Below, piece after piece: positions 8,056 to 63,697 of a stretch of DNA of 64,000 bases. Origin of the DNA: a virus. Taxonomy: Duplodnaviria > Heunggongvirae > Uroviricota > Caudoviricetes. The notes below the pieces were generated by a model, which saw only the letters and a list, made by a program, of their open reading frames with translations, did no database searches and was not told where the DNA came from. Position numbers and translations under genes: made by a program. Every line of letters begins with the position of its first letter. Position 1 is the stretch's first letter. Where the stretch lies: IMG/VR virus record IMGVR_UViG_3300037424_000495, positions 64,001 through 128,000 of that record; one strand, written 5' to 3'.

Positions 8056-8610
8056 ATGTCGTCTATCAAATCCGTACTAGAAGCACTCCGCACTGAACGT
8101 GAATACCGACGACGCCGATGGGGACACCGGCAGCCAGATGGTTCGATGATTGAAACTCCACATTCAATTGCGGATTTCATACTTTATATGCAAGACTACT
8201 ATCATGAAGCACGCCACCAATTGGTACGCGAACCTGGAATCACTAACACACTTAATACGTTACGTAAACTTATTGCACTCGGCTTTGCTTGTCTCGAACA
8301 ACATTACGGTTGTGGTCCCGTTGGTCATAAAAGACATGGTTATCCAATGTCTTTTGATGAATTGTATGCGGCATTCTTAACAGAAACAATAATCGAGCAT
8401 CCTAACACTGATTTCAGCACATTCATGTTTAAAATTAACCTTAGAATCGAAAACGCAGCCTTTAAAGCCGTTCGCATGGATTCAATAGATGCACTTCACA
8501 ATATCTACGCCGCTGTCCTACTAGGTATTGAATGTTTCAATAAATTTGGCATTGAATCCCGCGATCTAACACAACCCATCATCAATGCCCGCGATGGATT
8601 ACCTGCTTAG
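8056..8610 (+). CDS. Hypothetical helical protein (possibly MazG/dUTPase-like fold)
   Basis: EREYRRRRWG...LRKLIALGFACLEQH; fold call tentative. Confidence 0.5.
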   Translation: MSSIKSVLEALRTEREYRRRRWGHRQPDGSMIETPHSIADFILYMQDYYHEARHQLVREPGITNTLNTLRKLIALGFACLEQHYGCGPVGHKRHGYPMSFDELYAAFLTETIIEHPNTDFSTFMFKINLRIENAAFKAVRMDSIDALHNIYAAVLLGIECFNKFGIESRDLTQPIINARDGLPA

Positions 8611-12149: not shown

Positions 12150-12425
12150 CACGCACGCACCTTTTTAACCGCATCATTACCGCCATTGCTTTGATTCTTT
12201 TAGCTGTGATCATAGGCAACTGGCTTTCCAAACCGCCAGTGACGGCTGCACCAACTCAAGTGCAAACAAATAGACGCTAAATCAAATGAAATGAAACAAC
12301 AAGAAGAATCCCATAATCTATTAGCTGGTGCGCCCGTAACCGCTTATTTCCACCCACGAAATACAACAATGGCCTGCGGAAGGATTAGATTAAATGCGAG
12401 CACTAAATCTTCAAGGAGAAACAAT

Positions 12426-12656
12426 ATGAACTCTTGGTGGTTAGATACTTGTCTTATCGGCTCTTGTGGTTTGACAATACTTGTCTTTGTAGGCATCCCG
12501 ATCTACGAACATCCAAAGCTAGCGGCTGTCATTGCTGCGGCTATCGGCAGTTGCATCATTGCATCCTTGTTAATTGGGCTACTGTGGCGAGGCGTCCCTA
12601 AACTGTGGTCAACAGTTAAACAATTGTTTCAAATTCAGTCAAAACATGACTTTTAA
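12426..12656 (+). CDS. Two-TM membrane protein
   Basis: AAGGAG RBS before ATG 12426. Confidence 0.6.
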   Translation: MNSWWLDTCLIGSCGLTILVFVGIPIYEHPKLAAVIAAAIGSCIIASLLIGLLWRGVPKLWSTVKQLFQIQSKHDF

Positions 12657-13135: not shown

Positions 13136-13439
13136 CTTCAATGAAGCTTTGCGGTTAGTTGACGGGGACAAAGCTGCGGCCACCATGCTTGTCCTCGCTG
13201 CAGCTTTGCGTGAATCGCAGCCGGTAACTGACACGGCTTTAACTGTACACCAAGCCGCTCGGCGACTTAAAGTAGCCCCAAATACAGTCTATGGATTAGT
13301 TGAAACAGGCAAGCTAAAACATCATCGAATCGGCCGCACCATCCGTATCTTACCTGCCGATATTGACAGCTATCAACGGCAAGAGACCGACGCCACACGC
13401 CCTCAATCTCGGCCGGGAAAATACCACTTTGATCTCTAA
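13113..13439 (+). CDS. Excisionase-like (HTH_17) protein
   Basis: LTVHQAARRLKVAPNTVYGLVETGKL...RIGRTIRI; converges on integrase. Confidence 0.8.
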   Translation: MNAIVLSDFNEALRLVDGDKAAATMLVLAAALRESQPVTDTALTVHQAARRLKVAPNTVYGLVETGKLKHHRIGRTIRILPADIDSYQRQETDATRPQSRPGKYHFDL

Positions 13440-14470
13440 GAAACCACTGCGGCACGTTGATTCACTTTTTCTACAGCCGCCCGCAAAACAGAATTGTCGA
13501 GCCGCGCGTGTCCATAGCATTTAGTTATCATTGACGTGTCCTCGTGACCGCAAATTTCCGCCAAGACCGAATCTGGAATATTATTCTTCTGCCCCTCAGT
13601 AATAAAAGTATGTCGCATCGAGTATGCCGACACTTCATACGGTGTCTTCAAGTGTTGAAATCGGCAATTCAAAGCATTCTTTGTCCACGGCCGTCCGCGC
13701 GTGTTTCGGAAAAGAGGCCCCTCTGGATACTTCAATACTAGCGGTCTAATAATTAAAAGAACCACGTCGTCTAACGGCAAGAGCCGTTCTTTACGCTTTC
13801 CCTTCGCCAAATTCTTCGGTATACGAGCCACGCCCTCTTTCAAAAGAACGTGCTTCGCTTCCAAGAGTCTAATCTCCTTGGGCCGGCAGCCAGTGCGAAG
13901 CACCGTAACTAAAAAGTCGCGGAATTCACGATCCTTGATTCGTGATAGTAAATCCTCCATTTGTTCCGGGGCTAGATACGTAATCCGTCCTGTCTTAGGT
14001 GCTTTTCTAAACCCGTGCAGAGGCGAGTTAGCAATGAGCCGTTGATTCACTGCCCAATTAAAAGCGCCGAGTACGTCACTGGCGTAATCATGCCGAGTAT
14101 TATCGCTGGCGGGTTTACTCCCATCCTTCGGTTTCTTTGGACATCGCTTATCCAACCATTCAGTCAAATGCAACGGCAATAATCGACGAAGTCGCATCCT
14201 TGGCGGCAATGATTTACTGAAACTCTCCACATTCAACTTTATTCGATAATGTGTTGAGTCGGCGTGATTAGCAACACTCCAAATCAAATAACGATCCAAT
14301 ACATCAGCAACAAACAAATCGTGGCCGGGTGCCTCATCACTTCCGTGTACACGCATGAACTCGCGACGTGCGTCACTGTCCTTGTCACCTAAGAAATGCC
14401 AGACGCCTTTCTTTCTCGTCCACCAACCGCCTCGATCCGGTCGTTTACACATCTTTGGAGGGCGTGCCAT
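13436..14470 (-). CDS. int: Tyrosine recombinase/integrase
   Basis: TGCRPKEI, K (KGKRK), YSMRHTFIT, GHEDTSMITKCY catalytic set. Confidence 0.93.
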   Translation of the reverse strand: MARPPKMCKRPDRGGWWTRKKGVWHFLGDKDSDARREFMRVHGSDEAPGHDLFVADVLDRYLIWSVANHADSTHYRIKLNVESFSKSLPPRMRLRRLLPLHLTEWLDKRCPKKPKDGSKPASDNTRHDYASDVLGAFNWAVNQRLIANSPLHGFRKAPKTGRITYLAPEQMEDLLSRIKDREFRDFLVTVLRTGCRPKEIRLLEAKHVLLKEGVARIPKNLAKGKRKERLLPLDDVVLLIIRPLVLKYPEGPLFRNTRGRPWTKNALNCRFQHLKTPYEVSAYSMRHTFITEGQKNNIPDSVLAEICGHEDTSMITKCYGHARLDNSVLRAAVEKVNQRAAVVS

Positions 14471-15151: not shown

Positions 15152-15760
15152 ATGAATAAATGTGGAGCACCTATGAGAGGCACAACAATAAACACACACC
15201 TTGAAGAACTGTCCGACGAGCAGTTAATGGATGTACTGCAAAATGGTAATCAGGATGCCTTCACCATCCTTTATAGGAGGTATTACCCCAAAGTAAAGGG
15301 GAATGTCTGCAATCGACTTCGTGGTGAGTTAGCCGCCGACGCTGACGACATTGTTCAATCCGTTTTTCTTACTCTACATCGCTGTACCGAACGCTTTATT
15401 CGCAACAGTTTTGTATCCAGTTTTCTTTTGGCGACCACACACCGTCTCATTGTAAATCACTTGGAGCACGCACACAGGCAGAAACGGGATGTACGACGCC
15501 AAGGTTACGTCATCCATGAGAAATTGGCTGACAATCGTGCCTCGGAAAAGGCCGAAGCCGCCGAAGCCGCCGCCCATTTCCTTGAACGACTCACGCCGGC
15601 AGAGGCCGAAATCGTGCGTCTAATCGACATTGAAAGCAATACAGCCAAGGAAGCAGCCGTAATTATTAACGCCCCCATGACCACGGCTCAATGGCGATAC
15701 CGAAAAGCCTGGGAACATATCCGAGCACTCGCCGCACAGGAAGCCGTCGTCCCTGCATGA
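15152..15760 (+). CDS. ECF-type (sigma-70 group 4) RNA polymerase sigma factor
   Basis: LSDEQLM...GNQDAFTILYRRY, ADDIVQSVFL (region 2), EAAVIINAPMTTAQWRY (region 4). Confidence 0.85.
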   Translation: MNKCGAPMRGTTINTHLEELSDEQLMDVLQNGNQDAFTILYRRYYPKVKGNVCNRLRGELAADADDIVQSVFLTLHRCTERFIRNSFVSSFLLATTHRLIVNHLEHAHRQKRDVRRQGYVIHEKLADNRASEKAEAAEAAAHFLERLTPAEAEIVRLIDIESNTAKEAAVIINAPMTTAQWRYRKAWEHIRALAAQEAVVPA

Positions 15761-16322: not shown

Positions 16323-16700
16323 ATGCAATTAGTTAAACCTGACGATCCGATCTTGCACTTTCCTTGCCGGGCTGATTTCACCGTCAAGATGCAAGACATC
16401 ATGAAGATGTTTGAAATTCTTCAACTCATGAAGGGATTGGGTCTAGCCGCTCCGCAGGTCGGTATCGACGCTCGTTTATTCATTACATATTGGGGCGAGG
16501 TATTCGTGAATCCCACCGTTGTAGGCATCAGTTATTCAATCAAGTCCAGTGAAAGTTGCTTGAGCCTACCTGGTGTATTCAAAGACAAACAACGATCATA
16601 CCGGATTCAATTGGCAGACGGCCGTATCTACACCAATGAAAAGGCTATCGTCATTCAACATGAAATGGACCACCTTAACGGCATTCTTATAACTGACTGA
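16323..16700 (+). CDS. def: Peptide deformylase (short form)
   Basis: GLGLAAPQVG, ESCLSLP, QHEMDHLNG. Confidence 0.9.
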   Translation: MQLVKPDDPILHFPCRADFTVKMQDIMKMFEILQLMKGLGLAAPQVGIDARLFITYWGEVFVNPTVVGISYSIKSSESCLSLPGVFKDKQRSYRIQLADGRIYTNEKAIVIQHEMDHLNGILITD

Positions 16701-16707
16701 GATCACT

Positions 16708-18006
16708 ATGACAGACATTGGTTGGCTTATCGCAGGCGGTGCGGCAATCTCCGGGACTATTGGTATGTTCTGGAACTATATTAAAAGTCTCTGGGCACAG
16801 CTTTCCAGCCGAGTGGTCGTTACCACAAAAATTGATGGTCAACTAAATTCAGCCGTGAATATGTATGTTTGGCAACATTTTAAACCAACAAAATTTGGCC
16901 AGAATTCTTATACCGGGTGGTCAACATTTGTTCGGCCAGTCAAACGAGTGCAACTTATTGCAATGGAGTCGTTCGGAGAGTTTGGCAAACTATTTTGGCA
17001 CGGTTGGCGGCCGCTCTGGCTCTCCCAAATACCAAAAGATAAGAACCAACACGGTAGCAACCCATCTGACGGGATGAAACTCACTTTTCTTCGGGGCACA
17101 TTCAATCTTGAAAAATTGATATTAGCTGCTGTCAGTGACTATAACCATATTCGCGCTGCCACGGATTCTAACACATCAAGCCGTTATCGAGTCATTCACG
17201 TCTTTGGCACAGCTAACAAAGTCGCCCAATCTAATAACGGCTGTAAAACCTTAGCTTCCGCCTCAGTCGGCACATACGATGCAATAAGTATGCTTGAAAA
17301 TCGTATTCTTGAATGGAACTACAATGACCTAGGAAATTGTCGGATGAACCACGGCAACGCACTCGGCCAACAAGCATTGTCCCCTGAAGCCGCCGACATG
17401 GTGGCTGAAATCAAACGCTGGAAAACAAGCGAAGATTGGTATAAAACCCGTGGAATTCCGTGGCGACGTGGTTGGCGTCTTGAAGGCCCGCCCGGCACCG
17501 GCAAAACTTCCCTTATCCGCGCGATCGCTGAAGATCTGGATTTACCAATTTTCGTCTTTGATCTTGCCACACTTTATAATGACGAATTACAAGAAGCATG
17601 GCAAAAAATGCTTGAAAATGTTCCTTGTATCGCACTTATTGAAGACATAGACGCCGTCTTTGACGGTCGCGAAAACAAAGTCGGCGGACATTTAACCTTT
17701 GACAGTTTGCTAAATTGCCTAGACGGTGTTGAACGGGCCGACGGCATCTTATTGGTAATCACCACGAACTATCCAGATAAATTGGATAATGCTTTAAGTG
17801 ATACTCGGCCAGGGCGAATTGATCGGGTACTAAAACTCCATGATTTGAATCGTGACGGTCGATATTTACTCTGTTCACGTATCCTTAAAGAATGGCCAGA
17901 ACTTTGGAATCAAGCCATTGAAGACGGAGCCGGCGAAACAGGTGCTCAGTTTCAAGAACGATTGACTCAAATCGCGCTGCACAGATATTGGAGAGATTCA
18001 GCATGA
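16708..18006 (+). CDS. BCS1-like AAA+ ATPase
   Basis: N-terminal TM; GIPWRRGWRLEGPPGTGKTS, LIEDID, LLNCLDG, TTNYPDKLD..L...RPGRID. Confidence 0.85.
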   Translation: MTDIGWLIAGGAAISGTIGMFWNYIKSLWAQLSSRVVVTTKIDGQLNSAVNMYVWQHFKPTKFGQNSYTGWSTFVRPVKRVQLIAMESFGEFGKLFWHGWRPLWLSQIPKDKNQHGSNPSDGMKLTFLRGTFNLEKLILAAVSDYNHIRAATDSNTSSRYRVIHVFGTANKVAQSNNGCKTLASASVGTYDAISMLENRILEWNYNDLGNCRMNHGNALGQQALSPEAADMVAEIKRWKTSEDWYKTRGIPWRRGWRLEGPPGTGKTSLIRAIAEDLDLPIFVFDLATLYNDELQEAWQKMLENVPCIALIEDIDAVFDGRENKVGGHLTFDSLLNCLDGVERADGILLVITTNYPDKLDNALSDTRPGRIDRVLKLHDLNRDGRYLLCSRILKEWPELWNQAIEDGAGETGAQFQERLTQIALHRYWRDSA

Positions 18007-18046
18007 ATTGTTTCAAGAACATCGAAGTCGTATAGTTGGAGGCACC

Positions 18047-18520
18047 ATGCCAAGCGTCTTAAAACCGTGGGTCGAACAATTGGGTCTACGCCATCAAGGC
18101 GTACTTATGGCCTGTGTACGTGGCTGTGATAGTGTACCCAAAGAAGACCCGACGAAAGCCCTAGCCCGTTGCTTTCGTGCAACAATTCTTCAATCATTCG
18201 ATCCAAACCCCACAAGCTTCATCGAAAACGTAGACGATACTGTTCTACGTGAGCGGATGGTCGCCGTCTTAAAGAATCACGATCATTACCCAATCCACTA
18301 TCTTTTGCACCTTATGCACGGGGCCGAAATCATTGGCTATAAATGGCCTGGTTCGGCTGCTATCTGCTGGCAATGGTTCTATGAAAAATTAGCAGCCTGT
18401 TTCCATTTACACCCGGAAACAGAAGAAGAATTAGATACTCGATTAGGAGCGTGTGAAGCAAAATTTGCTCAACAAGCCGCTTCTGCTTATGATCTACTAC
18501 ACCAGCAACTACACCAATGA
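18047..18520 (+). CDS. Hypothetical protein
   Basis: GGAGG RBS before ATG 18047. Confidence 0.65.
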   Translation: MPSVLKPWVEQLGLRHQGVLMACVRGCDSVPKEDPTKALARCFRATILQSFDPNPTSFIENVDDTVLRERMVAVLKNHDHYPIHYLLHLMHGAEIIGYKWPGSAAICWQWFYEKLAACFHLHPETEEELDTRLGACEAKFAQQAASAYDLLHQQLHQ

Positions 18521-18625
18521 AACAATAAGAATGAAACAACAAGAAAGTTGCAAAGACGCATCGCCCACATTGAAGCACAACTATTTGAATTGTACCGTGC
18601 AGCCTCAATTTTACACAAATATAAT

Positions 18626-18653
18626 TTGACTTTCACCAATTTTGATGTATAGT
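18626..18653 (+). promoter_or_regulatory. Sigma70-like promoter with internal palindrome, driving tracrRNA/cas
   Basis: TTGACT-N16-TATAGT containing CACCAATTTTGATG. Confidence 0.7.
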
Positions 18654-18660
18654 TTAATTA

Positions 18661-18780
18661 GTGAAGGTGACTTGTCACCTTGAAGGTGAGAACAGCTAAG
18701 AACTTCGAGAGTCTTGCAGCACTCACCAAAGTTTCATTTCAACTCGCCTCCCTGGCTTCCGAGCCGGGGAGGCATATTTT
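18661..18780 (+). ncRNA. Putative tracrRNA
   Basis: GTTTCATTTCAA (18731-18742) is the perfect complement of repeat nt 19-30; hairpins at 18664-18681 and 18686-18727; bounded by promoter and terminator-like hairpin. Confidence 0.75.
18746..18780 (+). terminator. Intrinsic terminator-like hairpin
   Basis: 12-bp stem GCCTCCCTGGCT/AGCCGGGGAGGC, TCCG loop, then ATATTTT. Confidence 0.6.
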
Positions 18781-18792
18781 GAAAGGTGTTGT

Positions 18793-20085
18793 ATGAAAAA
18801 GACTACAAATAAAGGCGAAATAAGCCTCGCCCGGTTTGAAATACTGGGTTTGGACAAAGAAACTCGACTCCGCTGGAAAAGTCTCGCCGATACAGTTAAA
18901 CGCATGACGAATTGTTTCTATCGCACTTGGCTTGTCTGCCACACGCAAGCAGGAAATGATATAAAAATCCGTGAATACATTGCAGCCATCGGTCAGTGGC
19001 ATAAGAACGGTGCCAAAGGTACTAAACCGCAATGTGAGGTGAAATGCTTGACGCCTGAAATAACGGCGTCTATCCGTAAAGCACTTGCAAATTATTCCAC
19101 CGTCAACACACGTTGTCTTGATCTTGCAATGCAACTTTTAGGGCGACGCTTAACGACATTAAAAGCCAGTAAAAGCAATTATCCACGCTGGATACGGATA
19201 CTTGCTGATGAAGGCGAGTATCCTAATTCAAGTTCACCGCTACCGATTCCATTTGATAAGAAGAATGCCGAATTGCTACCGCCCATTGACAACGAAGATT
19301 TCCAATTCAAACTCCGAATCGATAGACTCAACCGCCCCGGCAAAATGGCAACCAGTACGCTGGATACTTTTAAATTAAAAACCCGAGGACGACAAGTTGC
19401 CAGTCAAACCGCCATTCTCTGGAAAATTGCGTCCGGGGAGTATGATTTTTGCGGTTCAAATCTTGTCTATAAAGAGGCTAATAATAAATGGTTTTTACAC
19501 ATTTGTTACCGACAGCCCGCCACAACTACTGCGGCATTAAATCAAGATAAAATCGCATTCCTACATGCAGGATTAAAACAACCCTGGCGACTACGAATTG
19601 CCGGCTATAAATTTTCAGTTGGCGGCCCGACCGGCCAGCACATTGCATATATACGCCGGCAACTATTAACAAGCCGCTGGGGGCGACAGGAAAATACACG
19701 CTATACAAGTTCCTCTGTCCGTGGGCATGGCGTAGACCGTGCTATGAAACCACTCCATTTGCCACGTTTAAAAATGCGTTGGCGGGATGCTGTAAAAACC
19801 TGTAACCAACAAATGGTCGCCAACGTGATTAGACTGTGTCAAGAAAAACAATGTGGCCAATTAGTTTATTTTCAACCCGCCGAATCGAGACGTGACACAC
19901 GCTTCTTGCATCTCGCAGGCAAAATTCCAGACCGCCATGACAGTACGAGTTGGGATTGGTATCAAGTACAAAACATGTTGTCTATTAAATGTAAAGCGGC
20001 TGGAATTGAGTTAATTGTACATAAAATTGGCGAGAAAAACATCGATTTTTCAGATAAAAAATCACCACAACTCGCAGCCGCATAA
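18793..20085 (+). CDS. Cas12f/TnpB-like type V effector, predicted nuclease-dead and C-terminally truncated
   Basis: Adjacent to array; RuvC-I-like IAFLHAGLKQP (H258 at the Asp position), RuvC-II-like CGQLVYFQP (F360 at the Glu position), WDWYQVQNML..KCKAAGI, then a stop before the Zn finger and RuvC-III. Confidence 0.8.
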   Translation: MKKTTNKGEISLARFEILGLDKETRLRWKSLADTVKRMTNCFYRTWLVCHTQAGNDIKIREYIAAIGQWHKNGAKGTKPQCEVKCLTPEITASIRKALANYSTVNTRCLDLAMQLLGRRLTTLKASKSNYPRWIRILADEGEYPNSSSPLPIPFDKKNAELLPPIDNEDFQFKLRIDRLNRPGKMATSTLDTFKLKTRGRQVASQTAILWKIASGEYDFCGSNLVYKEANNKWFLHICYRQPATTTAALNQDKIAFLHAGLKQPWRLRIAGYKFSVGGPTGQHIAYIRRQLLTSRWGRQENTRYTSSSVRGHGVDRAMKPLHLPRLKMRWRDAVKTCNQQMVANVIRLCQEKQCGQLVYFQPAESRRDTRFLHLAGKIPDRHDSTSWDWYQVQNMLSIKCKAAGIELIVHKIGEKNIDFSDKKSPQLAAA

Positions 20086-20102
20086 CACCTTAACACTTTA
20101 TC

Positions 20103-21118
20103 ATTGTAGTTGACCCTAATTTGAAATGAAACAACAAGTCTAAGCGACTACATTGCAAAACGCTATGTATTGTAGTTGACCCTAATTTGAAATGAAACAA
20201 CAAGTGTATATTGATAATAGAGGGTGTTAAAGGCATTGTAGTTGACCCTAATTTGAAATGAAACAACAAGGACAGAGGGCGTAAGCGGCGGATGCTTTCA
20301 ATTGTAGTTGACCCTAATTTGAAATGAAACAACAAGATATACAGTAAAAAAATTTATAGTAGAGAATTGTAGTTGACCCTAATTTGAAATGAAACAACAA
20401 GTGTATATTGATAATAGAGGGTGTTAAAGGCATTGTAGTTGACCCTAATTTGAAATGAAACAACAAGGACAGAGGGCGTAAGCGGCGGATGCTTTCAATT
20501 GTAGTTGACCCTAATTTGAAATGAAACAACAAGATTTAAGCAACCGTCAAACCACGAATATAATTGTAGTTGATCCTAATTTGAAATGAAACAACAAGGC
20601 GAAGCCTTAACACGACTAGCGGCCCTAGATTGTAGTTGATCCTAATTTGAAATGAAACAACAAGGACTGGATTGCGTGCGTCTTTGAGGCCGTCATTGTA
20701 GTTGACCCTAATTTGAAATGAAACAACAAGAAACTTCTCGGTCGCGTGCGTCAAGAGTTATTGTAGTTGATCCTAATTTGAAATGAAACAACAAGTAACT
20801 GTTGGACAACCACGGCGCTATCTGGATTGTAGTTGATCCTAATTTGAAATGAAACAACAAGTACAGGAGACTTGAATCATGGTGGCTTCACATTGTAGTT
20901 GATCCTAATTTGAAATGAAACAACAAGGTGGCCCTTCTTTGTCCGCAGTAACGGATTGTAGTTGATCCTAATTTGAAATGAAACAACAAGGACTGCATTA
21001 CAGTCGGCTTTTCTATTTTGATTGTAGTTGATCCTAATTTGAAATGGAACAACAAGATGCAAAACTACATACGATTGGTACAAATATCACAGTTGACCCT
21101 AATTTGAAATGAACAACG
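20103..21118 (+). CRISPR. CRISPR array: 16 repeats (36 bp, last degenerate), 15 spacers of 27-30 bp
   Basis: Repeat ATTGTAGTTGA(C/T)CCTAATTTGAAATGAAACAACAAG; first repeat 17 bp after the cas stop codon. Confidence 0.98.
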
Positions 21119-21223
21119 TCTGTTCCCTTTGTCACCGCCCATTGAAAACAAAACGTAAATTTTGTGCTGACTGCGGCGCACCTAAGTTACGTCATTTTAC
21201 TGAACGCTTAAAGGAGACTTTAA

Positions 21224-21712
21224 ATGAATGTGAAAGAAATAAAACAACAAAGTTACAAGCAGCAGTTACTCGAATGCTTGGCACTCCGTCAACAGGGTGG
21301 GAAGAGCGCATACAAACGCGCTAAGATTCTTCTATTTGTCTACAACGACAATGATTTTCGTCTCGACCACAATAACTTTGACGACGACAAATTGGCTAAT
21401 ATCCTCGATACATACGTCGAAGATTTAGCGATACGTTTTTGGCATCTTAAAGCTCTACTTGAATACTTTCCCGACGAGCACCAATGGGCCGAAGGCCGGC
21501 TACGCTCCATGCTCGAAGAAATGCAAACCGCACAAGATGTTCAGCAAACAAAACCTATTCAACGGCGTAAAACAGCAACAGTCGCGGAGGTCGAAGCACT
21601 TAAAAAGCAACTTACACACGAAAAAGCCCGCTGCCAACGCCTGTTAAAAGAAAACATAGCGTTACGTGAAGAAAACCAACAACTCAAACAGCGTCTTAAA
21701 AAAGCGGCTTAA
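21224..21712 (+). CDS. Coiled-coil hypothetical protein
   Basis: AAGGAG RBS; C-terminal heptads. Confidence 0.65.
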   Translation: MNVKEIKQQSYKQQLLECLALRQQGGKSAYKRAKILLFVYNDNDFRLDHNNFDDDKLANILDTYVEDLAIRFWHLKALLEYFPDEHQWAEGRLRSMLEEMQTAQDVQQTKPIQRRKTATVAEVEALKKQLTHEKARCQRLLKENIALREENQQLKQRLKKAA

Positions 21713-22372: not shown

Positions 22373-22651
22373 ATGAAATTTGCTTATCGTCCATCAGTCG
22401 ATCAATACGACGAACTGTGTGAAGACCTAATTGACAAAGACAATGGCCACATCACCGTTTGCCGTGAGGTTGAAGAAGCATATCAAAATCTAATTCTTGC
22501 CGCGCCTCGTGGTCTAGAACTTGCCGAAGAAATTCTACGAACCTGTGATCCTACAACCGGTCGAATACTGAGTGATATAACACGGCGCGAAATCGAACCC
22601 ATTAGAAAACTAGCAGAAGCATTTCTAGTCCAAGTAAAAGGTTTACAATGA
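22373..22651 (+). CDS. Hypothetical protein
   Basis: ATGA overlap with rtcB. Confidence 0.55.
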   Translation: MKFAYRPSVDQYDELCEDLIDKDNGHITVCREVEEAYQNLILAAPRGLELAEEILRTCDPTTGRILSDITRREIEPIRKLAEAFLVQVKGLQ

Positions 22652-23796
22652 ATACCGTCACCACGGAACAAATTCCAATCAAACTTTGGCTTGACGACAT
22701 TGAAGACGGAGCTATGGCCCAATGTCGCAATCTAGCCAACCTTCCTTTCGCCTTTTCCCATGTTGCCATCATGCCGGATTCGCATCAAGGTTACGGTATG
22801 CCAATCGGCGGTGTTTTAGCTACACGCGACGTTATTATTCCAAATGCAGTCGGAGTTGATATTGGTTGTGGCATGTGTGCAGTGAAAACATCACTGACTG
22901 ACATCGATGTTACACACCTAAAAAGAATTTTAGGTGAAATCCGCAAAACAATTCCGGTTGGTTTCGCACACCACGCAACACCGCAAGATGCCGCTTTCAT
23001 GCCTAGCCACGCAAAAATGTCTATCTTCACTGTCTGCGGGCATCAATTTGAAAACGCTCGCACACAGATTGGTACACTAGGCGGTGGCAACCATTTTATT
23101 GAAATCCAAAAAGGCTCTGACGGGCATATCTGGATCATGATCCATTCGGGTTCCCGTAATCTAGGGAAACAAGTAGCCGATTGGTACAATAAACTTGCAA
23201 TAGAATTCAATGAAAAATGGCACACTAAAGTTCCGAAAGAATGGGAACTTGCTTTTCTTCCTTACACTACAGATGTTTGTCGGGATTATCTCAATGATAT
23301 GCAGTTTTGTGTAAACTTTGCGTTTGCAAATCGCAAGTTAATGATGGATCGAATTTGTGATATTTTCCAATGTACTACTGATCCAATGATAAACATTGCG
23401 CATAACTATGTGGCTCTTGAACGTCATTTTGGACGAGATGTTTGGGTCCATCGTAAAGGTGCGACACTTGCCAGTGAAGGAACAATAGGACTGATCCCCG
23501 GTTCCCAAGGCACAGCGTCGTATGTTGTAAAAGGTAAAGGAAACATTCATTCCTTCCGGTCCTGTTCACACGGAGCAGGGCGTAAGATGGGCCGTAAAGA
23601 AGCCCAACGGACTTTGAATCTTGCTGACGAGCAAAAGAAACTCGACGATCTAGGAATTCTTCACGCTATCAGAGGCTCAGATGATTTAGATGAAGCGAGT
23701 GGAGCCTATAAAGATATCAATGTTGTCATGAAGAATCAAGAAGACCTAGTTGACATCATCACCGAACTGCGGCCTTTGGCAGTTATCAAAGGCTAA
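22648..23796 (+). CDS. rtcB: RtcB RNA 2',3'-cyclic phosphate/5'-OH ligase
   Basis: MPDSHQGYGMPIG, PNAVGVDIGCG, GTLGGGNHFIE, HSGSR, HNY, HRKGAT, HGAGR, DEASGAYK. Confidence 0.96.
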   Translation: MNTVTTEQIPIKLWLDDIEDGAMAQCRNLANLPFAFSHVAIMPDSHQGYGMPIGGVLATRDVIIPNAVGVDIGCGMCAVKTSLTDIDVTHLKRILGEIRKTIPVGFAHHATPQDAAFMPSHAKMSIFTVCGHQFENARTQIGTLGGGNHFIEIQKGSDGHIWIMIHSGSRNLGKQVADWYNKLAIEFNEKWHTKVPKEWELAFLPYTTDVCRDYLNDMQFCVNFAFANRKLMMDRICDIFQCTTDPMINIAHNYVALERHFGRDVWVHRKGATLASEGTIGLIPGSQGTASYVVKGKGNIHSFRSCSHGAGRKMGRKEAQRTLNLADEQKKLDDLGILHAIRGSDDLDEASGAYKDINVVMKNQEDLVDIITELRPLAVIKG

Positions 23797-52422: not shown

Positions 52423-52458
52423 TTTGTAGTTGATCCTAGTTTGAAATGAAACAGCAAG
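52423..52458 (+). CRISPR. Solitary CRISPR repeat unit
   Basis: TTTGTAGTTGATCCTAGTTTGAAATGAAACAGCAAG; 33/36 identical to the GATCC array variant. Confidence 0.9.
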
Positions 52459-52473
52459 AAGGTTTAATCAACA

Positions 52474-53919
52474 ATGTTTTTACGCATTTGTAATCCTGGT
52501 GAAGCACCTGTTGAAGGTTACACGTTACTCGGTGTCAGTACAACTCGGAACTGCGGTATTGCCGGTACAATTGGGCAGTTTGGCAGCGGTGCAAAACATG
52601 CGATCAATGTGATTTTGCGGGCTGGCTTGAAAGTGATAATTTACTGTGGCCCGACGAAACTGGAATTTCTTACGTGTGACGACGAAATCAATGATGGCCT
52701 CACAACGAAGGCTGTCAAGCGTGTATTCTGTCGCATGGGTGGCACGTCTACGCGGACAATCGACTTAGGTTGGGTGCTTGATTTTGGTGCAATTGACTGG
52801 ACTGATCTTGGCATGGCGTTGCGAGAATTCATCAGTAATGCAATTGATCGCACAATTCGTCAGACAGGTGATTTTATTCCGGCGATGCGTGATGGTGATT
52901 TATCTGTCACTATGGTTGAAGATGAGAAACTGCGGGCGAAGACTGGGTACACCCAGGCGTTTATTCAGATCAATCCAGATGTGGAACAGTATCAACGGGA
53001 ATTATCACGGCGTTTTCTTCATTTTTCTGAACGTCCTGAGCAGGTTAAGCAATCACTTCTTCCGAAGGCAAATCGCAATTTGAACGGCAGTAAGGCCGCG
53101 ATGATTTATCGTGAAGGCGTATTTGTACGGGAGTTTAATGTCACCGATGCAAAATCGGTGTATGACTACAATTTTAGGGCAGATGAATTGCGAATTGATG
53201 AAAGTCGCAATAGCAGCGAATATGATGTGAAGGCTGCATGTGCAAAACTAATGCGAAAAGCAGCAGCTACCGAATTGGTGCCGGTTTTTAGAAGTCTCGT
53301 TGAAAAGGAAGAGATATTTGAAGCCGGACTAGACCCGTACTACATCTGTCCGTCATGGGAAACGCCGGGCGATGAACAGCAACAAAATTGGAAGCAGGCT
53401 TGGCAAACAGTGGCCGGTGATGCCGTGCTTTGCGGTCCGTCGGAAACGGTGATTGAATTTGTGGAGCATAAAGGTGTGGTAGCGAAGTCCATTAAGGTTG
53501 CGGCGTTGGTGGAAGTGGCCCGTCGCTTTGGAATTTTAACCGGCGATCAAGTATTGACCGACAATGAGCGCAAAGGTCGTGAAGTGCTTCCGGCTAGTGA
53601 TACAGCAATACAGGCTGTCCATACTGTGTGGAATTGGCTTGAGAAATTGCAGTTAATTAACGGGGCGACCATACCGCCGGTGGGTTGTTTTCGGGACGTG
53701 GTGAATTCAGGACAACGTCTTCTTGGTTACTGCGACGGTAAAGGCGTCTATCTGGCTGACGACCATGCTAGTGGCGGGGTGAATAAATTGCTTTTAAAAA
53801 CCGCACTGGAAGTATGTGTTCACTGGATCACAGGAGCGACAGATGGCAGCCGAGATGTGCAAGACTTTCTACTTCGGACGGTCATTGAGATCGTCACAGA
53901 GAATTGTTTGCTGAATTAG
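52474..53919 (+). CDS. GHKL-type ATPase with permuted motif order
   Basis: RICNPG and IGQFGSGAK at the N-terminus; LREFISNAID about 75 aa later. Confidence 0.7.
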   Translation: MFLRICNPGEAPVEGYTLLGVSTTRNCGIAGTIGQFGSGAKHAINVILRAGLKVIIYCGPTKLEFLTCDDEINDGLTTKAVKRVFCRMGGTSTRTIDLGWVLDFGAIDWTDLGMALREFISNAIDRTIRQTGDFIPAMRDGDLSVTMVEDEKLRAKTGYTQAFIQINPDVEQYQRELSRRFLHFSERPEQVKQSLLPKANRNLNGSKAAMIYREGVFVREFNVTDAKSVYDYNFRADELRIDESRNSSEYDVKAACAKLMRKAAATELVPVFRSLVEKEEIFEAGLDPYYICPSWETPGDEQQQNWKQAWQTVAGDAVLCGPSETVIEFVEHKGVVAKSIKVAALVEVARRFGILTGDQVLTDNERKGREVLPASDTAIQAVHTVWNWLEKLQLINGATIPPVGCFRDVVNSGQRLLGYCDGKGVYLADDHASGGVNKLLLKTALEVCVHWITGATDGSRDVQDFLLRTVIEIVTENCLLN

Positions 53920-60115: not shown

Positions 60116-61792
60116 ATGAACGAAATGCTGCAAGCCTTTGCCACGACTCTGACGGAGGGAATCCGTAGTCGTACTCTGACTACATGCAGTCGGTGGGCTG
60201 AGCATCGGCGCGTAATGGGTGCGCCATTCAACGGTCCTTATAGTTTTCAGTATCATCCGTGGTGCCGGGAGATACATAATAGTAAAGCGCAGTGGACCAT
60301 CGCCATGAAGGCGGCTCAACTGGGCGTAACTGAGACAGGTATCAATCGAGCTTTTTATACCCTCGATCAACTTAAGAGAGATGTTCTTTACGTATTGCCC
60401 ACGACGATAAATGCAAGTGATTTTTCTAAAGCTCGGTTTGCAACGGCGTTAAAATTAAGCGACTATTTAAAAAACCTTTTTGTTGATACAAATACTGTTG
60501 GTTTGAAATCCACAGGCACTAATGTATTGTATATTCGTGGTAGCCGTGGTGACAGCAATTTGAAATCCATTCCAGTGTCCGAATTGATTTTGGATGAGTT
60601 GGACGAAATGGATATTCACGCGGTGTGGCTCGCCTTAGAGCGTTTAAGCGGTCAACTTGAAAAACATATTCTGGCGATATCGACGCCGACTGTGCCAAAA
60701 TACGGTATTCATAAACTGTATTTGACAGGTACACAAGAGCACTACTATTTTCAATGCCCATGTTGTTCACGATGGACAGAGTTATTGTGGCCAGATTGCA
60801 TTGAAATTATTGGTGAATCTGTTAACGATCCTCGTTGTAAAGAATCGTTTCTAAAGTGTAAGGAGTGCAAAAATCGTCTTGAACACGCGGATAAGAGACA
60901 TTTTTTAGCTAATGGAGTTTGGCGACCAACTGAATTACAAGTTTCAGCGGATGAGGCGCGAAGCTTTTATATCAATCAGCTTTATTCCTCCACTGTCACC
61001 CCTAGTGAGTTGGTAATTGCTTATCATCGTGGTCTCGGCGATGAAGCAGCTAATACCGAGTTCCATAATTCAAAACTTGGAAATCCCTTCATCGGTGAGG
61101 GCGCACAAGTCACCGATGAAATGCTTGAGAACTGTATTCAAAATTACACAATCAATGAGTCACGCCCACAGATCGGTGGTGAACGTCTAATAACGCTTGG
61201 AGCCGATCAAGGTAAGACTGGTTACATTTCTGTTGTTGATTGGACGTTTGATCGGCATCCTGGTAGTGACATCAATGCAGCGGCGCTTGGTAAGTTACTT
61301 TGGTATGGTAAATTCCTTGAAGACGGCTGGGAATATCTTGAGGAATTGATGCGGGAGTGGCAAGTATTAGCGGCAGTTGTGGATGCTGATCCGAACGTCA
61401 ATGACGCCCGGCGATTTGCTAAAAAGTTTCATGGCTATGTATGGTTGACCCGATACCGGCGTGGTCAGACTGCAAAGGAAATTAGTGTTCAAGAGGAAGA
61501 GACTGGAGCACCGTTTGCTATTGTGGATCGTACTAGTTGGCTCTCATGCACGCTTGGAAGATTCAAAACAAATCCATCACGCATCATATTACCTCGCGAT
61601 ATTTCATTAGAGTATAGGGAACACGTAAAAAATTTAGTGCGCACGTATGAGAGAGATGACACCAACAACGTGAATGCTGTGTATGTTAACACGGGCGCAG
61701 ATCATTATGCTCACTCGCTGTGTTATGCAGACATTGGTTTATCGTTAGCTGCAATCAGTAGCGGCGGAGAAAACATCGGCAAAGCGCCCTAA
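60116..61792 (+). CDS. terL: Terminase large subunit (GpA-like)
   Basis: AMKAAQLGVTE (Walker A), LILDELDE (Walker B), ISTPT, FQCPCC, LGADQG, DHYAHS. Confidence 0.9.
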   Translation: MNEMLQAFATTLTEGIRSRTLTTCSRWAEHRRVMGAPFNGPYSFQYHPWCREIHNSKAQWTIAMKAAQLGVTETGINRAFYTLDQLKRDVLYVLPTTINASDFSKARFATALKLSDYLKNLFVDTNTVGLKSTGTNVLYIRGSRGDSNLKSIPVSELILDELDEMDIHAVWLALERLSGQLEKHILAISTPTVPKYGIHKLYLTGTQEHYYFQCPCCSRWTELLWPDCIEIIGESVNDPRCKESFLKCKECKNRLEHADKRHFLANGVWRPTELQVSADEARSFYINQLYSSTVTPSELVIAYHRGLGDEAANTEFHNSKLGNPFIGEGAQVTDEMLENCIQNYTINESRPQIGGERLITLGADQGKTGYISVVDWTFDRHPGSDINAAALGKLLWYGKFLEDGWEYLEELMREWQVLAAVVDADPNVNDARRFAKKFHGYVWLTRYRRGQTAKEISVQEEETGAPFAIVDRTSWLSCTLGRFKTNPSRIILPRDISLEYREHVKNLVRTYERDDTNNVNAVYVNTGADHYAHSLCYADIGLSLAAISSGGENIGKAP

Positions 61793-61900: not shown

Positions 61901-63697
61901 ATGGCTAATGGTATACCTAATCTCGTAGATTCTCGGCATCCCGGGTATTTAAGTGGTCAGAATGATTGGCGTAAATGGCGATTGACCTACCAAGGTGGTG
62001 ATGACTTTCGTGAGACATATCTGAAAAAGTTCAGTACGCGCGAGGATGCGGAAGAATATGCGTCGCGAAAAGAGATAACTCCTGTACCACGATTCGCCGG
62101 GGCGGCGATAGATGATATTCGTAATTCAATTTACCAGCGTATGCGGGACATTGTCCGCAAAGGCGGGAGTAAAGCATACCAAAATGCTGTCGCTGGATTG
62201 AATTATGGTGTTGACCGGCGCGGTTCGACAATGAACGCTTTTTTAGGCGTTAAAGTGTTGACTGAATTATTAGTCATGGGACGAGTTGGTGTCTATGTTG
62301 ATGCACCTGTTGTTGCGCCCGATGCTACAGTTGCGGACGGACAACAAAATCCTTATCTCTATTGCTATCAAGTGGAAGATATTTTGTCTTGGACGTGTTC
62401 CAAGGCAGATGAACCTAGTGAGTTTCAGGCTGTGTTATTGCGTGACACCGTCATGCAATATGATGCTACGTGGCTATTGCCAACATTACAAGTACAACGG
62501 TATCGATATCTTTGGATTGATCCTGTAACACAACGTGTTAATCTTCAATTTTACGATGTGGCAGGTCAACAAGTTGACGCAGATGGATTTCCATCGACTG
62601 GACCAATTGAATTAGAGTTGACACGTATTCCTTTTGTCATGCTTGATACCGGCCGGAGCATGATTCAAGACGTGTGCCAACAACAGATTGCATTGTTGAA
62701 TCTTGGCTCCAGTGATGTGAATTATGCTTTACGGTCGAATTTTCCCTTTTACGTCGAGCAAAAAGATTTGCGAGCCGTTGGTGCGCATTTAAAACACGCC
62801 GCGACGGCGGATGGAACATCGACAAGTGGCGGCCAAGGCGCAGCGGATGCTGATATTAAGGTCGGTGCGACACATGGCCGCGCCTACGATAAGGGAATGC
62901 AGCCTCCCACGTTTATTAACCCGTCGTCAGAACCCTTGAAAGCAAGTTTAGATTTACAAGAACGAATTAAAGGAGATATCCGTGAGCTTGTGAATCTAGC
63001 TGTTTCGAGTCTTGCCATTCGGGCGTCGGCTGAATCTAAGGCGATGGATAATCAAGGGCTTGAAGCTGGATTGTCATATATCGGACTCCTATTAGAGAGT
63101 GCCGAACGATTGATTGCTGGCTTTTGGGCAGCGTATGAAGAACGCACTGTAAGTAGGCGGTTAATTGCGACAATCAAATATCCAGAGCGGTATAGCTTGA
63201 AGTCTGACGGAGACCGCATTAAGGAAGCTCAAGATCTGCAGAAACTTATGAATGCTGTTCCAGGGCGGAAGATTAAACGTGAGTTGGCCAAAAGTATTGT
63301 ACAGGCGTTACTTGGGGGCAAGATCAGTGTGGATGATCTTGATGAGATTAACAGTGAAATTGAGCGCTGCAATTACACAACAAGCGATCCTGCAATAGTT
63401 TTACAAGCGTTAGAGGGTGGTGCTTGTGGCGAGAAAACTGCCTCTATAGCACTTGGTTTTGACGACAATGAACATCTACACGCACGCGAAGATCATGTAG
63501 CGCGTCTTGAGCGGATTGCAGCCACTCAAGGAATGGGCAGTGACAGTAATGTAAGTGATCCGGCTGCGCGTGGCTTAAAGGATTTGTCAGCTAATCTAAA
63601 CGCGGGACAGGATGAGAAAGCTGCTAGTCGTGATAACACCCTACGTGATACTACGGCTTCGCGAACACGTGGTAAAGGTAAGTTGAAAGTGGAGTAA
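61901..63697 (+). CDS. Portal protein
   Basis: 598 aa directly after terL; HPGY...W.KWR..Y.GG..F...YL N-terminal portal pattern. Confidence 0.75.
   Translation: MANGIPNLVDSRHPGYLSGQNDWRKWRLTYQGGDDFRETYLKKFSTREDAEEYASRKEITPVPRFAGAAIDDIRNSIYQRMRDIVRKGGSKAYQNAVAGLNYGVDRRGSTMNAFLGVKVLTELLVMGRVGVYVDAPVVAPDATVADGQQNPYLYCYQVEDILSWTCSKADEPSEFQAVLLRDTVMQYDATWLLPTLQVQRYRYLWIDPVTQRVNLQFYDVAGQQVDADGFPSTGPIELELTRIPFVMLDTGRSMIQDVCQQQIALLNLGSSDVNYALRSNFPFYVEQKDLRAVGAHLKHAATADGTSTSGGQGAADADIKVGATHGRAYDKGMQPPTFINPSSEPLKASLDLQERIKGDIRELVNLAVSSLAIRASAESKAMDNQGLEAGLSYIGLLLESAERLIAGFWAAYEERTVSRRLIATIKYPERYSLKSDGDRIKEAQDLQKLMNAVPGRKIKRELAKSIVQALLGGKISVDDLDEINSEIERCNYTTSDPAIVLQALEGGACGEKTASIALGFDDNEHLHAREDHVARLERIAATQGMGSDSNVSDPAARGLKDLSANLNAGQDEKAASRDNTLRDTTASRTRGKGKLKVE

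Follow-up and report, generated by a model that had tools for sequence, protein, structure and literature searches.

The best sequence and structure match of the system reported here is AsCas12f from Acidibacillus sulfuroxidans (PDB 8j12, 7wju, 8dzj), a miniature, active type V effector of 422 amino acids that works with a tracrRNA and a CRISPR array, and whose guides open with a 5' handle taken from the repeat and continue into the spacer. Type V-F effectors act as an asymmetric homodimer on one guide RNA. dCas12f-sigmaE of Bacteroidota (PMC13472631; PMC10691335; PDB 9n9c) is Cas12f-derived, C-terminally truncated and nuclease-dead; it uses single chimeric guides that match sites upstream of the operons it activates, and its operonic rpoE partner carries a C-terminal extension that docks on dCas12f. 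A separate, CRISPR-linked cluster of array-associated truncated dCas12f proteins with a covarying upstream RNA has been proposed to act as repressors (PMC13472631); it is chromosomal, occurs in Bacteroidota (a Chitinophagaceae MAG) and has a guide matching an efflux promoter of its own genome. Cas12m and Cas12k are also naturally cleavage-deficient type V proteins that act by binding. Cas12m (ca. 600 amino acids, no need for a tracrRNA, a modified RuvC site retained) silences by binding only (PMC10442227), and Cas12k (ca. 640 amino acids) directs the targeting of the Tn7-like transposons in which it resides alongside tnsB, tnsC and tniQ. TldR proteins (10.1101/2023.11.30.569447; fliC regulators, PMC13418256) are nuclease-dead members of the TnpB superfamily carried by temperate phages and thought to reprogram expression under RNA guidance; they descend from TnpB and use one omega-RNA-type guide, at the 3' end of their gene, with a fixed host target of the fliC or oppA type. 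Finally, Cas12r of Thermus Lalka phages (10.64898/2026.04.20.719267) is a compact phage-encoded type V protein without adaptation genes, whose array is aimed at rival integrative elements. The naturally dead proteins Cas12k, Cas12m, TldR and dCas12f-sigmaE each showed a new use of DNA targeting and became compact tools.

The locus analyzed here is taken, with middling confidence, for a functional CRISPR-type module that a phage carries and whose core is a Cas12f derivative lacking nuclease activity by nature. It shares with AsCas12f the small size and the guide architecture, and differs from it in the loss of the catalytic residues, of the zinc finger and of RuvC-III, in a conserved insert, in two additional conserved genes and in being carried by a phage. 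Truncation and an ECF sigma gene near the effector recall dCas12f-sigmaE, from which the locus departs by its separate scaffold RNA with its own terminator, its 16-repeat array, the partner genes, not described there, and its phage and Planctomycetota setting. The CRISPR-linked dCas12f cluster, compared by description only, lacks mention of the two partners in the text of the paper. Unlike Cas12m, the effector is of 430 amino acids and has a tracrRNA; unlike TldR, it has an upstream tracrRNA and an array, and its nearest relatives are Cas12f rather than TnpB proteins; and unlike Cas12r, which is an active RuvC nuclease of 564 amino acids with no need for a tracrRNA and with opposite crRNA polarity, it is predicted not to cleave.

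A phage-borne locus with tracrRNA, effector gene and array

The window (the whole stretch of 64,000 nucleotides analyzed, positions 64,001 to 128,000 of IMG/VR record IMGVR_UViG_3300037424_000495) belongs to a complete phage of 129 kb that encodes a terminase, a portal protein and an integrase. The module comprises the following features, numbered from the first letter of the window:

18626-18653, + strand: putative sigma70-like promoter of the tracrRNA/operon, TTGACT-16-TATAGT
ca. 18660-18780, + strand: tracrRNA-like scaffold RNA (RNA ends deduced)
ca. 18662-18683, + strand: scaffold stem 1
ca. 18685-18727, + strand: scaffold stem 2
18731-18742, + strand: 12-nt perfect anti-repeat, GTTTCATTTCAA
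18746-18773, + strand: 12-bp terminator hairpin of the scaffold
18793-20085, + strand: effector gene P0001, truncated, RuvC-dead, Cas12f-like, 430 amino acids
20103-21121, + strand: CRISPR array, 16 repeats of 36 nt (ATTGTAGTTGAYCCTAATTTGAAATGAAACAACAAG) and 15 spacers, last repeat degenerate
21109-21324, + strand: four-cysteine zinc-ribbon mini-ORF starting inside the terminal repeat, conserved part ca. 21109-21240
21224-21712, + strand: accessory gene P0183, 162 amino acids, helical N-terminal domain and long C-terminal coiled-coil helix (homology, AlphaFold2)

The promoter, found by a consensus scan, agrees with the sigma70 consensus at 10 of 12 positions. The scaffold folds with a z-score of -3.3, and when eight loci were aligned with RNAalifold, 13 of its 21 pairs showed compensatory double changes. 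The anti-repeat lies 51 nt ahead of the ATG both here and in the related locus L021, and 59 nt ahead of it in L018, and in each of the three it is complementary to the repeat of its own locus. Judged from this covariation, and from an anti-repeat that changes together with its repeat, the upstream tracrRNA is real. The combination of a tracrRNA bearing an anti-repeat with a CRISPR array, a type V-F trait, is thus predicted from the sequence of the locus.

Spacers are 27-30 nt long, and the second and third recur as the fifth and sixth, leaving 13 unique ones. Arrays with a period of ca. 65 nt and a conserved repeat 3' end were found in seven other loci, the ending '...ACA(A/G)G' being kept in arrays of homologous loci. 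A 19-nt core of the repeat gave only two stray single matches in IMG/VR, and 401 Planctomycetota genomes searched with the repeat yielded one match with three mismatches and no array. Neither Cas1 nor Cas2 was matched anywhere in the 129-kb phage genome. Duplicated repeat-spacer units, present here and in L021, together with the absence of Cas1/2 suggest that these arrays may not be updated in the way immune arrays are.

No transposase-like ORF was found among the effector neighbours scanned with Pfam or PHROGs. A mobile-element context was recognized for this phage and for five related contigs, L020 and L021 among them, and the effector family is rare in host genomes (1 of 401 Planctomycetota genomes). 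Most of these elements had been read from the letters of the window alone in an earlier note, and its description of the promoter (as a sequence), the tracrRNA candidate, the 430-residue gene, the 16-repeat array, the phage origin and the lack of cas1/2 and of adjacent transposase genes was borne out. Its text lacks the zinc-ribbon mini-ORF, the accessory gene, the repeat copies outside the array and the ECF sigma gene 3 kb upstream, which are described below.

The effector is a truncated Cas12f derivative with a dead RuvC site

A profile of the effector family matched AsCas12f in the PDB with E=5e-27, a protein also retrieved by phmmer, and the sigmaE-type dCas12f 9n9c with 1.8e-11. The AlphaFold2 model of the effector (pLDDT 94) gave 8j12 as its top Foldseek match (E=7e-21). 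All top matches were Cas12f proteins, and every match was Cas12f, dCas12f or Cas12k, with Cas12m and Cas12k remote at E of about 1e-8. By profile search, AlphaFold2 and Foldseek, the protein therefore has the TnpB/Cas12f fold with its WED-REC-RuvC core, and the Cas12f-like identity that the earlier note had recommended checking with Foldseek is upheld, AsCas12f being the best match by both sequence and structure.

In the HMM alignment to AsCas12f, the RuvC-I Asp is replaced by His258 and the RuvC-II Glu by Gln361. Homology stops at about residue 408 of 430, and the remaining 22 residues were modelled with low confidence; the zinc finger, with its target-nucleic-acid-binding segment, and RuvC-III are therefore absent, so that no position of the Asp-Glu-Asp triad is intact. 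This agrees with the earlier reading of an Asp replaced by His258, of a stop ahead of the zinc finger and RuvC-III and of the loss of all three catalytic positions. The loss of the RuvC-II Glu had been placed at Phe360; the loss stands, and the position is one residue off, Gln361 being the aligned residue. A further trait is a conserved insert at about residues 370-389, RFLxxAGKxPxRxDxTxWDW. Going by its residues and by their conservation in the family, the effector is genuinely nuclease-dead and truncated.

The dead site is conserved and under selection

The effector family comprises 182 clusters at 50% identity (E<1e-30), nearly all of 400-500 amino acids. Among 172 aligned homologues the Asp column holds Arg, His, Ser or Val, the Glu column is Gln in 134, and the C-terminal tail beyond the homology has a median length of 22 residues; the same truncation point and substitutions are thus found in at least 172 homologues. 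Values of dN/dS for the effector were 0.043, 0.085 and 0.095 in three pairs. An independent Logan assembly showed zero differences over 18600-20130, stop codon included, and this rules out misassembly as the source of the stop. By these sequence comparisons the family is under strong purifying selection. Family-wide conservation, low dN/dS and a covarying tracrRNA together argue that the loss of the active site was selected and is not decay. The earlier note had already denied decay and had named dN/dS, the reality of the early stop and the state of the homologues as the points to check: dN/dS proved to be 0.04-0.10, the stop is real, and the homologues, far from being all full-length active nucleases, have the dead, truncated site in common in at least 172 cases.

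Two further conserved genes belong to the system

Downstream of the effector, the mini-ORF and an accessory gene of ca. 165 codons were found in 13 of 14 loci, among them loci whose effectors are only about 30% identical. Homologues of the mini-ORF occupied the same position in 10 loci, with four invariant cysteines and an F..R motif. Pfam returned generic Zn_ribbon matches only, and searches of the PDB and Pfam revealed no specific likeness to the TnpB/Cas12f finger. The accessory protein is 42-48% identical to the product of the ORF downstream of the effector in close loci, was detectable in 13 of 14 informative loci and has 28 database homologues. Its AlphaFold2 model (pLDDT 89) found no match in Foldseek searches of the PDB or in the ESM Atlas, and a single run of complex prediction with the effector scored 0.00, a value that counts neither for nor against contact between the two. 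The upstream 170-residue ORF at 18008-18520 was also considered as a recurrent partner and rejected because its alignment was unconvincing.

The covarying scaffold and the two partners go with the effector family consistently, an array usually. On the strength of their conserved sequence and position, the system is more than effector, tracrRNA and array, and these two genes belong to it; as its companions, the zinc-ribbon and coiled-coil genes are previously undescribed. A simple roadblock needs no accessories, yet two are strictly conserved, which hints at a more elaborate output. A family of at least 180 clusters of proteins of ca. 430 residues that combines phage carriage, a multi-spacer array and two conserved partners of unknown fold suggests an output mechanism not yet described.

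Spacer targets and proposed mechanism

The spacers were searched for targets at several levels. With blastn-short against the array-masked phage genome, nothing exceeded 16/18. The whole array gave noise only against 50,697 GenBank phages and a best E of 0.005, at chance level, against the 401 Planctomycetota genomes. Exact 21-22-nt seeds of seven of the 13 unique spacers had no match in IMG/VR, nor had seeds of two spacers in JGI metagenomes. Spacers of five related arrays matched neither this phage nor each other's loci, and array 1 of the jumbo phage G003 contained no self-targets. In L021, a palindrome after the last repeat that recurs twice in the contig was discarded as operator-like and not a protospacer. 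The earlier proposal that the phage silences competitors or reprograms its host thus found no backing, in that no protospacer turned up in the phage, GenBank phages, the Planctomycetota genomes or, by exact seeds, IMG/VR and the JGI metagenomes.

Since no spacer target was found, the function of the module is one that we infer. RNA-guided DNA binding without cleavage, silencing external targets, would be its most likely function, one to which we give an even chance on the features of the sequence. The promoter at 18626 would drive the scaffold RNA, and transcripts that run past the terminator would supply both the effector mRNA and the pre-crRNA. In each repeat, bases 19-30 would pair with the anti-repeat, and the crRNAs loaded by the effector would consist of the repeat 3' handle and then the spacer. 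The complex would bind matching double-stranded DNA and leave it uncut, and by its occupancy would keep external targets from being transcribed or replicated. As all 13 spacers fail to match the phage itself, these targets would most likely be host genes or rival mobile elements. Both partner proteins would probably stabilize the complex or add an output function. Binding-only silencing by Cas12m, the Cas12r array directed at rival integrative elements and the CRISPR-linked dCas12f cluster with its proposed repressors set precedents for this reading.

In a wider and quite tentative reading, the locus would represent an undescribed phage type V subtype in which the truncated dead Cas12f is the DNA-finding subunit acting with zinc-ribbon and coiled-coil partners, perhaps with an ECF sigma factor in one lineage. 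Its array would address external DNA, and solitary repeats in the 5' parts of phage genes (see below) would turn the complex, or its tracrRNA, on the phage's own expression. If true, the phage would encode a transcription controller that is natural, programmable and multiplexed. The family also offers a way to study programmable DNA binding by phages against hosts or rival elements.

Alternative readings of the module

Among the alternatives, a rather unlikely one, though ahead of the others, is that the dead effector merely finds the target, and that the zinc-ribbon and coiled-coil partners, or a bound host factor, deliver the effect. Degradation, an abortive response, and recombination or integration are the effects named under this heading. 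Cas12k sets a precedent, since dead type V effectors can act as target finders for other machinery, and by analogy the same might hold here. The strict conservation of both small genes beside such divergent effectors fits this reading, as does L020, in which the zinc-ribbon frame overlaps the effector stop codon, where Cas12f bears its zinc finger; the mini-protein might replace in trans the finger that the effector has lost. Tyrosine integrase genes lie near L018, near L021 and here, where the gene is:

13436-14470: tyrosine integrase gene of the phage

Against this, neither partner has a recognizable enzymatic domain, the accessory being without a fold match and the mini-ORF a generic zinc ribbon, and neither a nuclease gene nor a transposase gene regularly accompanies the module.

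Next in probability, and again unlikely, the module could be an activator in which the dead effector recruits an ECF sigma factor, directly or via the accessories, to sites chosen by the guide and so starts transcription. The gene in question, a possible partner, is:

15152-15760, + strand: ECF-type sigma factor gene, 202 amino acids (Pfam Sigma70_r2 2.8e-11, r4_2 2.3e-4)

Its best PDB match is E. coli sigmaE. A same-strand gene with sigma70 r2 and r4_2 domains lies upstream of the effector in all seven loci of the close clade, at 0.5-2 kb in six relatives and at 3 kb here, and it is this position directly upstream in the closest relatives that keeps an activator mechanism of the dCas12f-sigmaE type open. 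Several of these sigma-bearing loci have no array and only one repeat-like unit, and the effector of dCas12f-sigmaE is likewise C-terminally truncated (PMC13472631; PMC10691335). Whichever reading holds, the coexistence of array-bearing and sigma-adjacent, array-less forms makes the family a possible second, independent case of the evolutionary path proposed for dCas12f-sigmaE. However, five ORFs part the sigma gene from the effector here, where it is not operonic, and the phage protein ends at residue 202, without the docking extension; tighter linkage and variable C-terminal sigma tails were seen only in relatives L004 and L005. Seven distant loci have no sigma gene in their available flanks and retain the accessory genes, so the linkage may reflect synteny within one phage lineage. 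The family profile is also far nearer to active AsCas12f than to 9n9c, the guide is a tracrRNA with an array rather than a single chimeric RNA, and none of the phage operons has a spacer target ahead of it, nor were guide matches of that kind found in the genomes searched. The idea of a single guide in array-less relatives was examined in two cases and rejected in both: in G001 the conserved segment that follows the lone repeat-like unit occurs only once, and in G002 it recurs only in an incomplete copy of the module at a distance of 22 kb, which is not a target.

A further set of features concerns repeats outside the array:

12286-12303, + strand: half-repeat, with 17 of the final 18 nucleotides of the repeat, overlapping the start codon of ORF 12291-12656
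18516-18543, + strand: final 14 nt of the repeat, twice in tandem and once without mismatch, a short way ahead of the tracrRNA promoter
52423-52458, + strand: solitary full-length repeat with 3-4 mismatches; 15 nt separate its end from the ATG of ORF 52474-53919

A Logan contig links an array repeat to sequence flanking the solitary repeat. These copies raise the improbable alternative that the module is chiefly an RNA-level or self-regulatory device, in which the tracrRNA, together with the effector, pairs with repeat copies where phage mRNAs begin and controls the translation or processing of these mRNAs, or programs feedback on their genes. Proposed sites are the solitary repeat (52423), the half-repeats (12286 and 18516-18543) and the terminal repeat in which the zinc-ribbon ORF starts. 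All four extra copies lie on the + strand, either across a start codon or a short way ahead of one, and an ATG forms part of the 12 nt that pair with the tracrRNA. An exact repeat 14-mer is expected by chance about 0.001 times in this genome, and exact 14-mers exceed chance about 1000-fold. In the jumbo phage G003, too, an orphan repeat unit precedes a gene, at 65 kb from the arrays, and array-less relatives retain one repeat-like unit in the zinc-ribbon/accessory leader. Such regulation would leave a 13-spacer array of diverse non-self spacers unexplained, and the half-repeats could be a start sequence that these genes have in common (ATGAAACAACAAG codes for MKQQ) and not sites of regulation.

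Phages carry solitary repeat units as RNA anti-CRISPRs, and the effector is catalytically dead, as would befit a decoy or anti-CRISPR whose dead Cas12f copy and repeat RNAs titrate a host type V-F system's guide RNAs or tracrRNA. This is very improbable: each locus has its own tracrRNA covarying with its own repeat, the family is rare and the repeat without an array in the 401 Planctomycetota genomes, and the diversity of spacers would go unexplained. Least credible of all are decay from a once active Cas12f system and an artefact of assembly, which a truncated protein without catalytic residues or adaptation genes might at first suggest and which are effectively refuted by the recurrence of the truncation point and substitutions across the family, the low dN/dS, the covarying tracrRNA and an independent assembly identical over the ORF and its stop codon.

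The phage and its putative RNA-guided module

The virus of record is a tailed phage with terminase, portal and tyrosine integrase genes. Its complete record (129,143 bp, complete by CheckV), of which the window is the second half, had no close cultured relative, its terminase showing at most 26% identity to any GenBank phage. A promoter, a tracrRNA candidate, a 430-aa gene and a 16-repeat array, all proposed in the earlier note, were confirmed in place. The zinc-ribbon and accessory genes are further members of the module. The features are as follows.

13436-14470, tyrosine integrase gene
15152-15760, same strand as the effector gene and 3 kb upstream of it, ECF-type sigma gene
18626-18653, sigma70-like promoter
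18731-18742, anti-repeat, 12 nt, GTTTCATTTCAA
18746-18773, terminator hairpin
18793-20085, + strand, effector gene, 430 aa
20103-21121, CRISPR array, 16 repeats
21109-21324, zinc-ribbon mini-ORF, starting within the terminal repeat
21224-21712, accessory gene, 162 aa, first ORF past the array
60116-61792, large terminase gene
61901-63697, portal gene

Neither Cas1 nor Cas2 was found across the entire phage genome, which extends to the complete phage the absence of cas1/2 first noted for the window. Neighbours of the module, at 16323-18006 and 22648-23796, include an AAA+ ATPase (PF00004) and peptide deformylase-like and RtcB-like RNA ligase ORFs, the last two called from translations read by eye, with no family scan. 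In relatives the corresponding slot, flanked by the sigma and effector genes, is taken up by ThyX.

A family of truncated, nuclease-dead effectors

The effector had no Pfam match, and NCBIfam gave nothing but a TnpB match below threshold. A PDB sequence search retrieved AsCas12f at about 1e-11, improving to 5e-27 with the family profile, which makes it the nearest relative by profile. The AlphaFold2 model, built with 110 homologues as input, was of high confidence (pLDDT 94, pTM 0.84), and its best Foldseek matches were all Cas12f-type (8j12, E=7e-21), followed by sigmaE-type dCas12f, with TnpB, Cas12k and Cas12m more remote; the Cas12f-like identity was thereby upheld. Unlike AsCas12f, the phage protein lacks the RuvC-I Asp, the RuvC-II Glu, the zinc finger and RuvC-III. 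HMM alignment placed His258 at the RuvC-I Asp, as had been read by eye, and Gln361 at the RuvC-II Glu; loss of this Glu therefore stands, but Phe360, the residue originally named, is one position off. Similarity to AsCas12f ended at about residue 408 and the remaining 22 residues were poorly modelled, so that the zinc finger and RuvC-III have no counterpart, in agreement with the claim that the protein stops before them.

Searched exhaustively, 1.8 billion cluster representatives yielded 182 homologue clusters at E<1e-30, nearly all of 400-500 aa. In an alignment of 172 proteins drawn from these clusters, the RuvC-I Asp column was occupied by R/H/S/V and the RuvC-II Glu column by Q in 134, followed by a near-invariant Pro, and the tail beyond the last conserved strand had a median of 22 residues. 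Codon comparison of three informative pairs gave dN/dS values of 0.043, 0.085 and 0.095. The number of clusters, the dead site and short tail common to them and the low dN/dS effectively rule out decay of an active nuclease, as the earlier note had suggested. An assembly artefact is ruled out by a Logan assembly of a sediment metagenome, only partly independent in that its sample may be the source, which showed zero differences over 18600-20130, early stop codon included.

Guide RNA and array

An RNA of ~120 nt is predicted between the promoter and the effector ATG, with two stems, the anti-repeat and a strong terminator hairpin (fold z-score -3.3). The scaffold lies upstream of the effector gene in 8 loci, across which RNAalifold identified 21 pairs, 13 of them with compensatory double changes, and the anti-repeat covaries with the repeat of its own locus. 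Locus L021 carries an 11-nt perfect complement to its differing repeat 51 nt before the ATG, a spacing identical to that of the phage, and in L018 the complement is placed 59 nt before the ATG. The repeat was set at 36 nt (ATTGTAGTTGAYCCTAATTTGAAATGAAACAACAAG) because the initial spacer cuts all started with G; spacers are 27-30 nt, and spacers 2-3 are duplicated as 5-6, leaving 13 unique ones. The final repeat is degenerate, matching expectation for the leader-distal end. Arrays of 7 other loci showed a ~65-nt period and a common repeat 3' end, ...ACA(A/G)G, with varying 5' parts. Combined, the scaffold, the co-varying anti-repeat and the conserved repeat 3' end fix the predicted guide RNAs on the + strand, with a crRNA that would read from repeat handle to spacer.

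Partner genes

The accessory protein is 42-48% identical to the product of the ORF downstream of the effector gene in close loci, is detectable even where effector identity is only about 30-37%, and its gene was present in 13 of the 14 informative loci. Its predicted structure comprises an all-helical domain and a long C-terminal helix (pLDDT 89). Neither Pfam nor PHROG assigned it a family; the PDB offered no matching fold and the Atlas no meaningful neighbour. The mini-ORF, located across loci between the effector or array and the accessory gene, was found in at least 10 loci with four invariant Cys and a conserved F..R tail; family scores indicated a generic zinc ribbon and nothing more specific. 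The order of the parts is conserved: the scaffold RNA is followed by the dead effector, then by the array (or one repeat-like unit), the zinc-ribbon mini-protein and finally the coiled-coil protein.

The zinc-ribbon and accessory ORFs, which are in different frames, share 100 nt (21224-21324). The smaller ORF contains the Shine-Dalgarno sequence of the accessory gene, which suggests translational coupling.

Targets and mode of action

The 13 unique spacers had no match in their own phage genome, GenBank phages or 401 Planctomycetota genomes, nor did spacer seeds in IMG/VR (7 of the 13) or JGI metagenomes (2 spacers). Since none matched the phage itself, targets appear to be external DNA; mean spacer GC (45%, against 46% for the phage) gives a weak hint. 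Array 1 of a 364-kb jumbo phage (G003) likewise had no self-target.

The best-supported reading is that the guide RNA would take the dead effector to external DNA, where binding without cleavage would act by occupancy. Silencing by Cas12m is a binding-only precedent (PMC10442227), the phage type V array of Cas12r is directed at rival integrative elements (10.64898/2026.04.20.719267), and a CRISPR-linked dCas12f cluster was proposed by its discoverers to comprise repressors (PMC13472631). The strict conservation of two partner proteins argues for something more than simple roadblocking, and substantial weight goes to recruitment through these partners and to a sigma-linked activator mechanism like that of dCas12f-sigmaE, the RNA-guided activator type of Bacteroidota (PMC13472631, PMC10691335). 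The activator mechanism is kept alive by the closest clade (effector identity ~>=47%; mostly Planctomycetota MAGs or prophage-like contigs), where a sigma gene lay upstream of the effector in 7 of 7 loci, 0.5-2 kb away in six; several of these lack an array. Against it, the phage sigma lacks a C-terminal extension, the guide consists of tracrRNA plus array, and the family profile is far nearer active AsCas12f than sigmaE-type dCas12f. Moreover, no sigma gene was seen in the available flanks of seven more distant loci, several plainly phage contigs, so the linkage may reflect lineage synteny (CsrA, sigma, effector) and not functional coupling. In the close-relative loci L004, L005, L018 and L019 a small CsrA-family gene precedes the sigma gene as part of a conserved block.

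Truncated dead Cas12f proteins are already known, array-linked ones being mentioned in passing (PMC13472631), and loss of RuvC-III ahead of loss of the array has been described (PMC10691335). No description was found of a phage-borne dead-Cas12f family with zinc-ribbon and coiled-coil partners; the CRISPR-linked cluster of PMC13472631 may or may not be the same family.

Extra repeat copies and variant loci

Copies of the repeat also occur outside the array.

12286-12303 and 18516-18543, exact or near-exact copies of the last 14-18 nt of the repeat (AATGAAACAACAAG)
52423-52458, + strand, solitary full-length repeat with 3-4 mismatches, its end 15 nt upstream of the start codon (ATG) of ORF 52474-53919

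About 0.001 exact 14-mers of the repeat end are expected by chance. All copies run on into GAA, so that several ORFs start MKQQE. The first covers the start codon of ORF 12291-12656, those at 18516-18543 lie at the start of a 32-codon ORF (18531), and a 15-codon upstream ORF opens at an ATG within the solitary repeat, ahead of the 481-aa ORF (phrog_8203, no assigned function). The presence of ATG in the tracr-pairing core of the repeat makes an RNA-level or feedback role conceivable. The jumbo phage has a comparable orphan unit (repeat-spacer-partial repeat) 65 kb from its arrays, immediately upstream of a gene.

This complete jumbo phage (IMGVR_UViG_3300037067_012889, locus L002) carries two tandem dead-effector paralogues (434 and 401 aa) surrounded by three arrays with one common repeat, the accessory gene sitting between arrays. 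In L020 the array lies downstream of the accessory gene, and the zinc-ribbon frame (8251-8451) has no ATG and overlaps the effector stop codon. A Thermoguttaceae MAG holds, 22 kb from its complete locus L012 and adjoining a host glycosyl-hydrolase gene, a partial copy (L042, G002:C1:1368876-1371893) that includes the final ~25 nt of the effector gene and the repeat-like unit, together with the zinc-ribbon and accessory ORFs. This copy could represent a second, degraded element or a duplication at the boundary. The array of L021 (8249-8508) consists of three identical repeat-spacer units, and past its last repeat lies an operator-like palindrome, ACTGACAT-C-ATGTCAGT, that recurs at two intergenic sites of the same phage contig (2084-2104 and 11934-11956).
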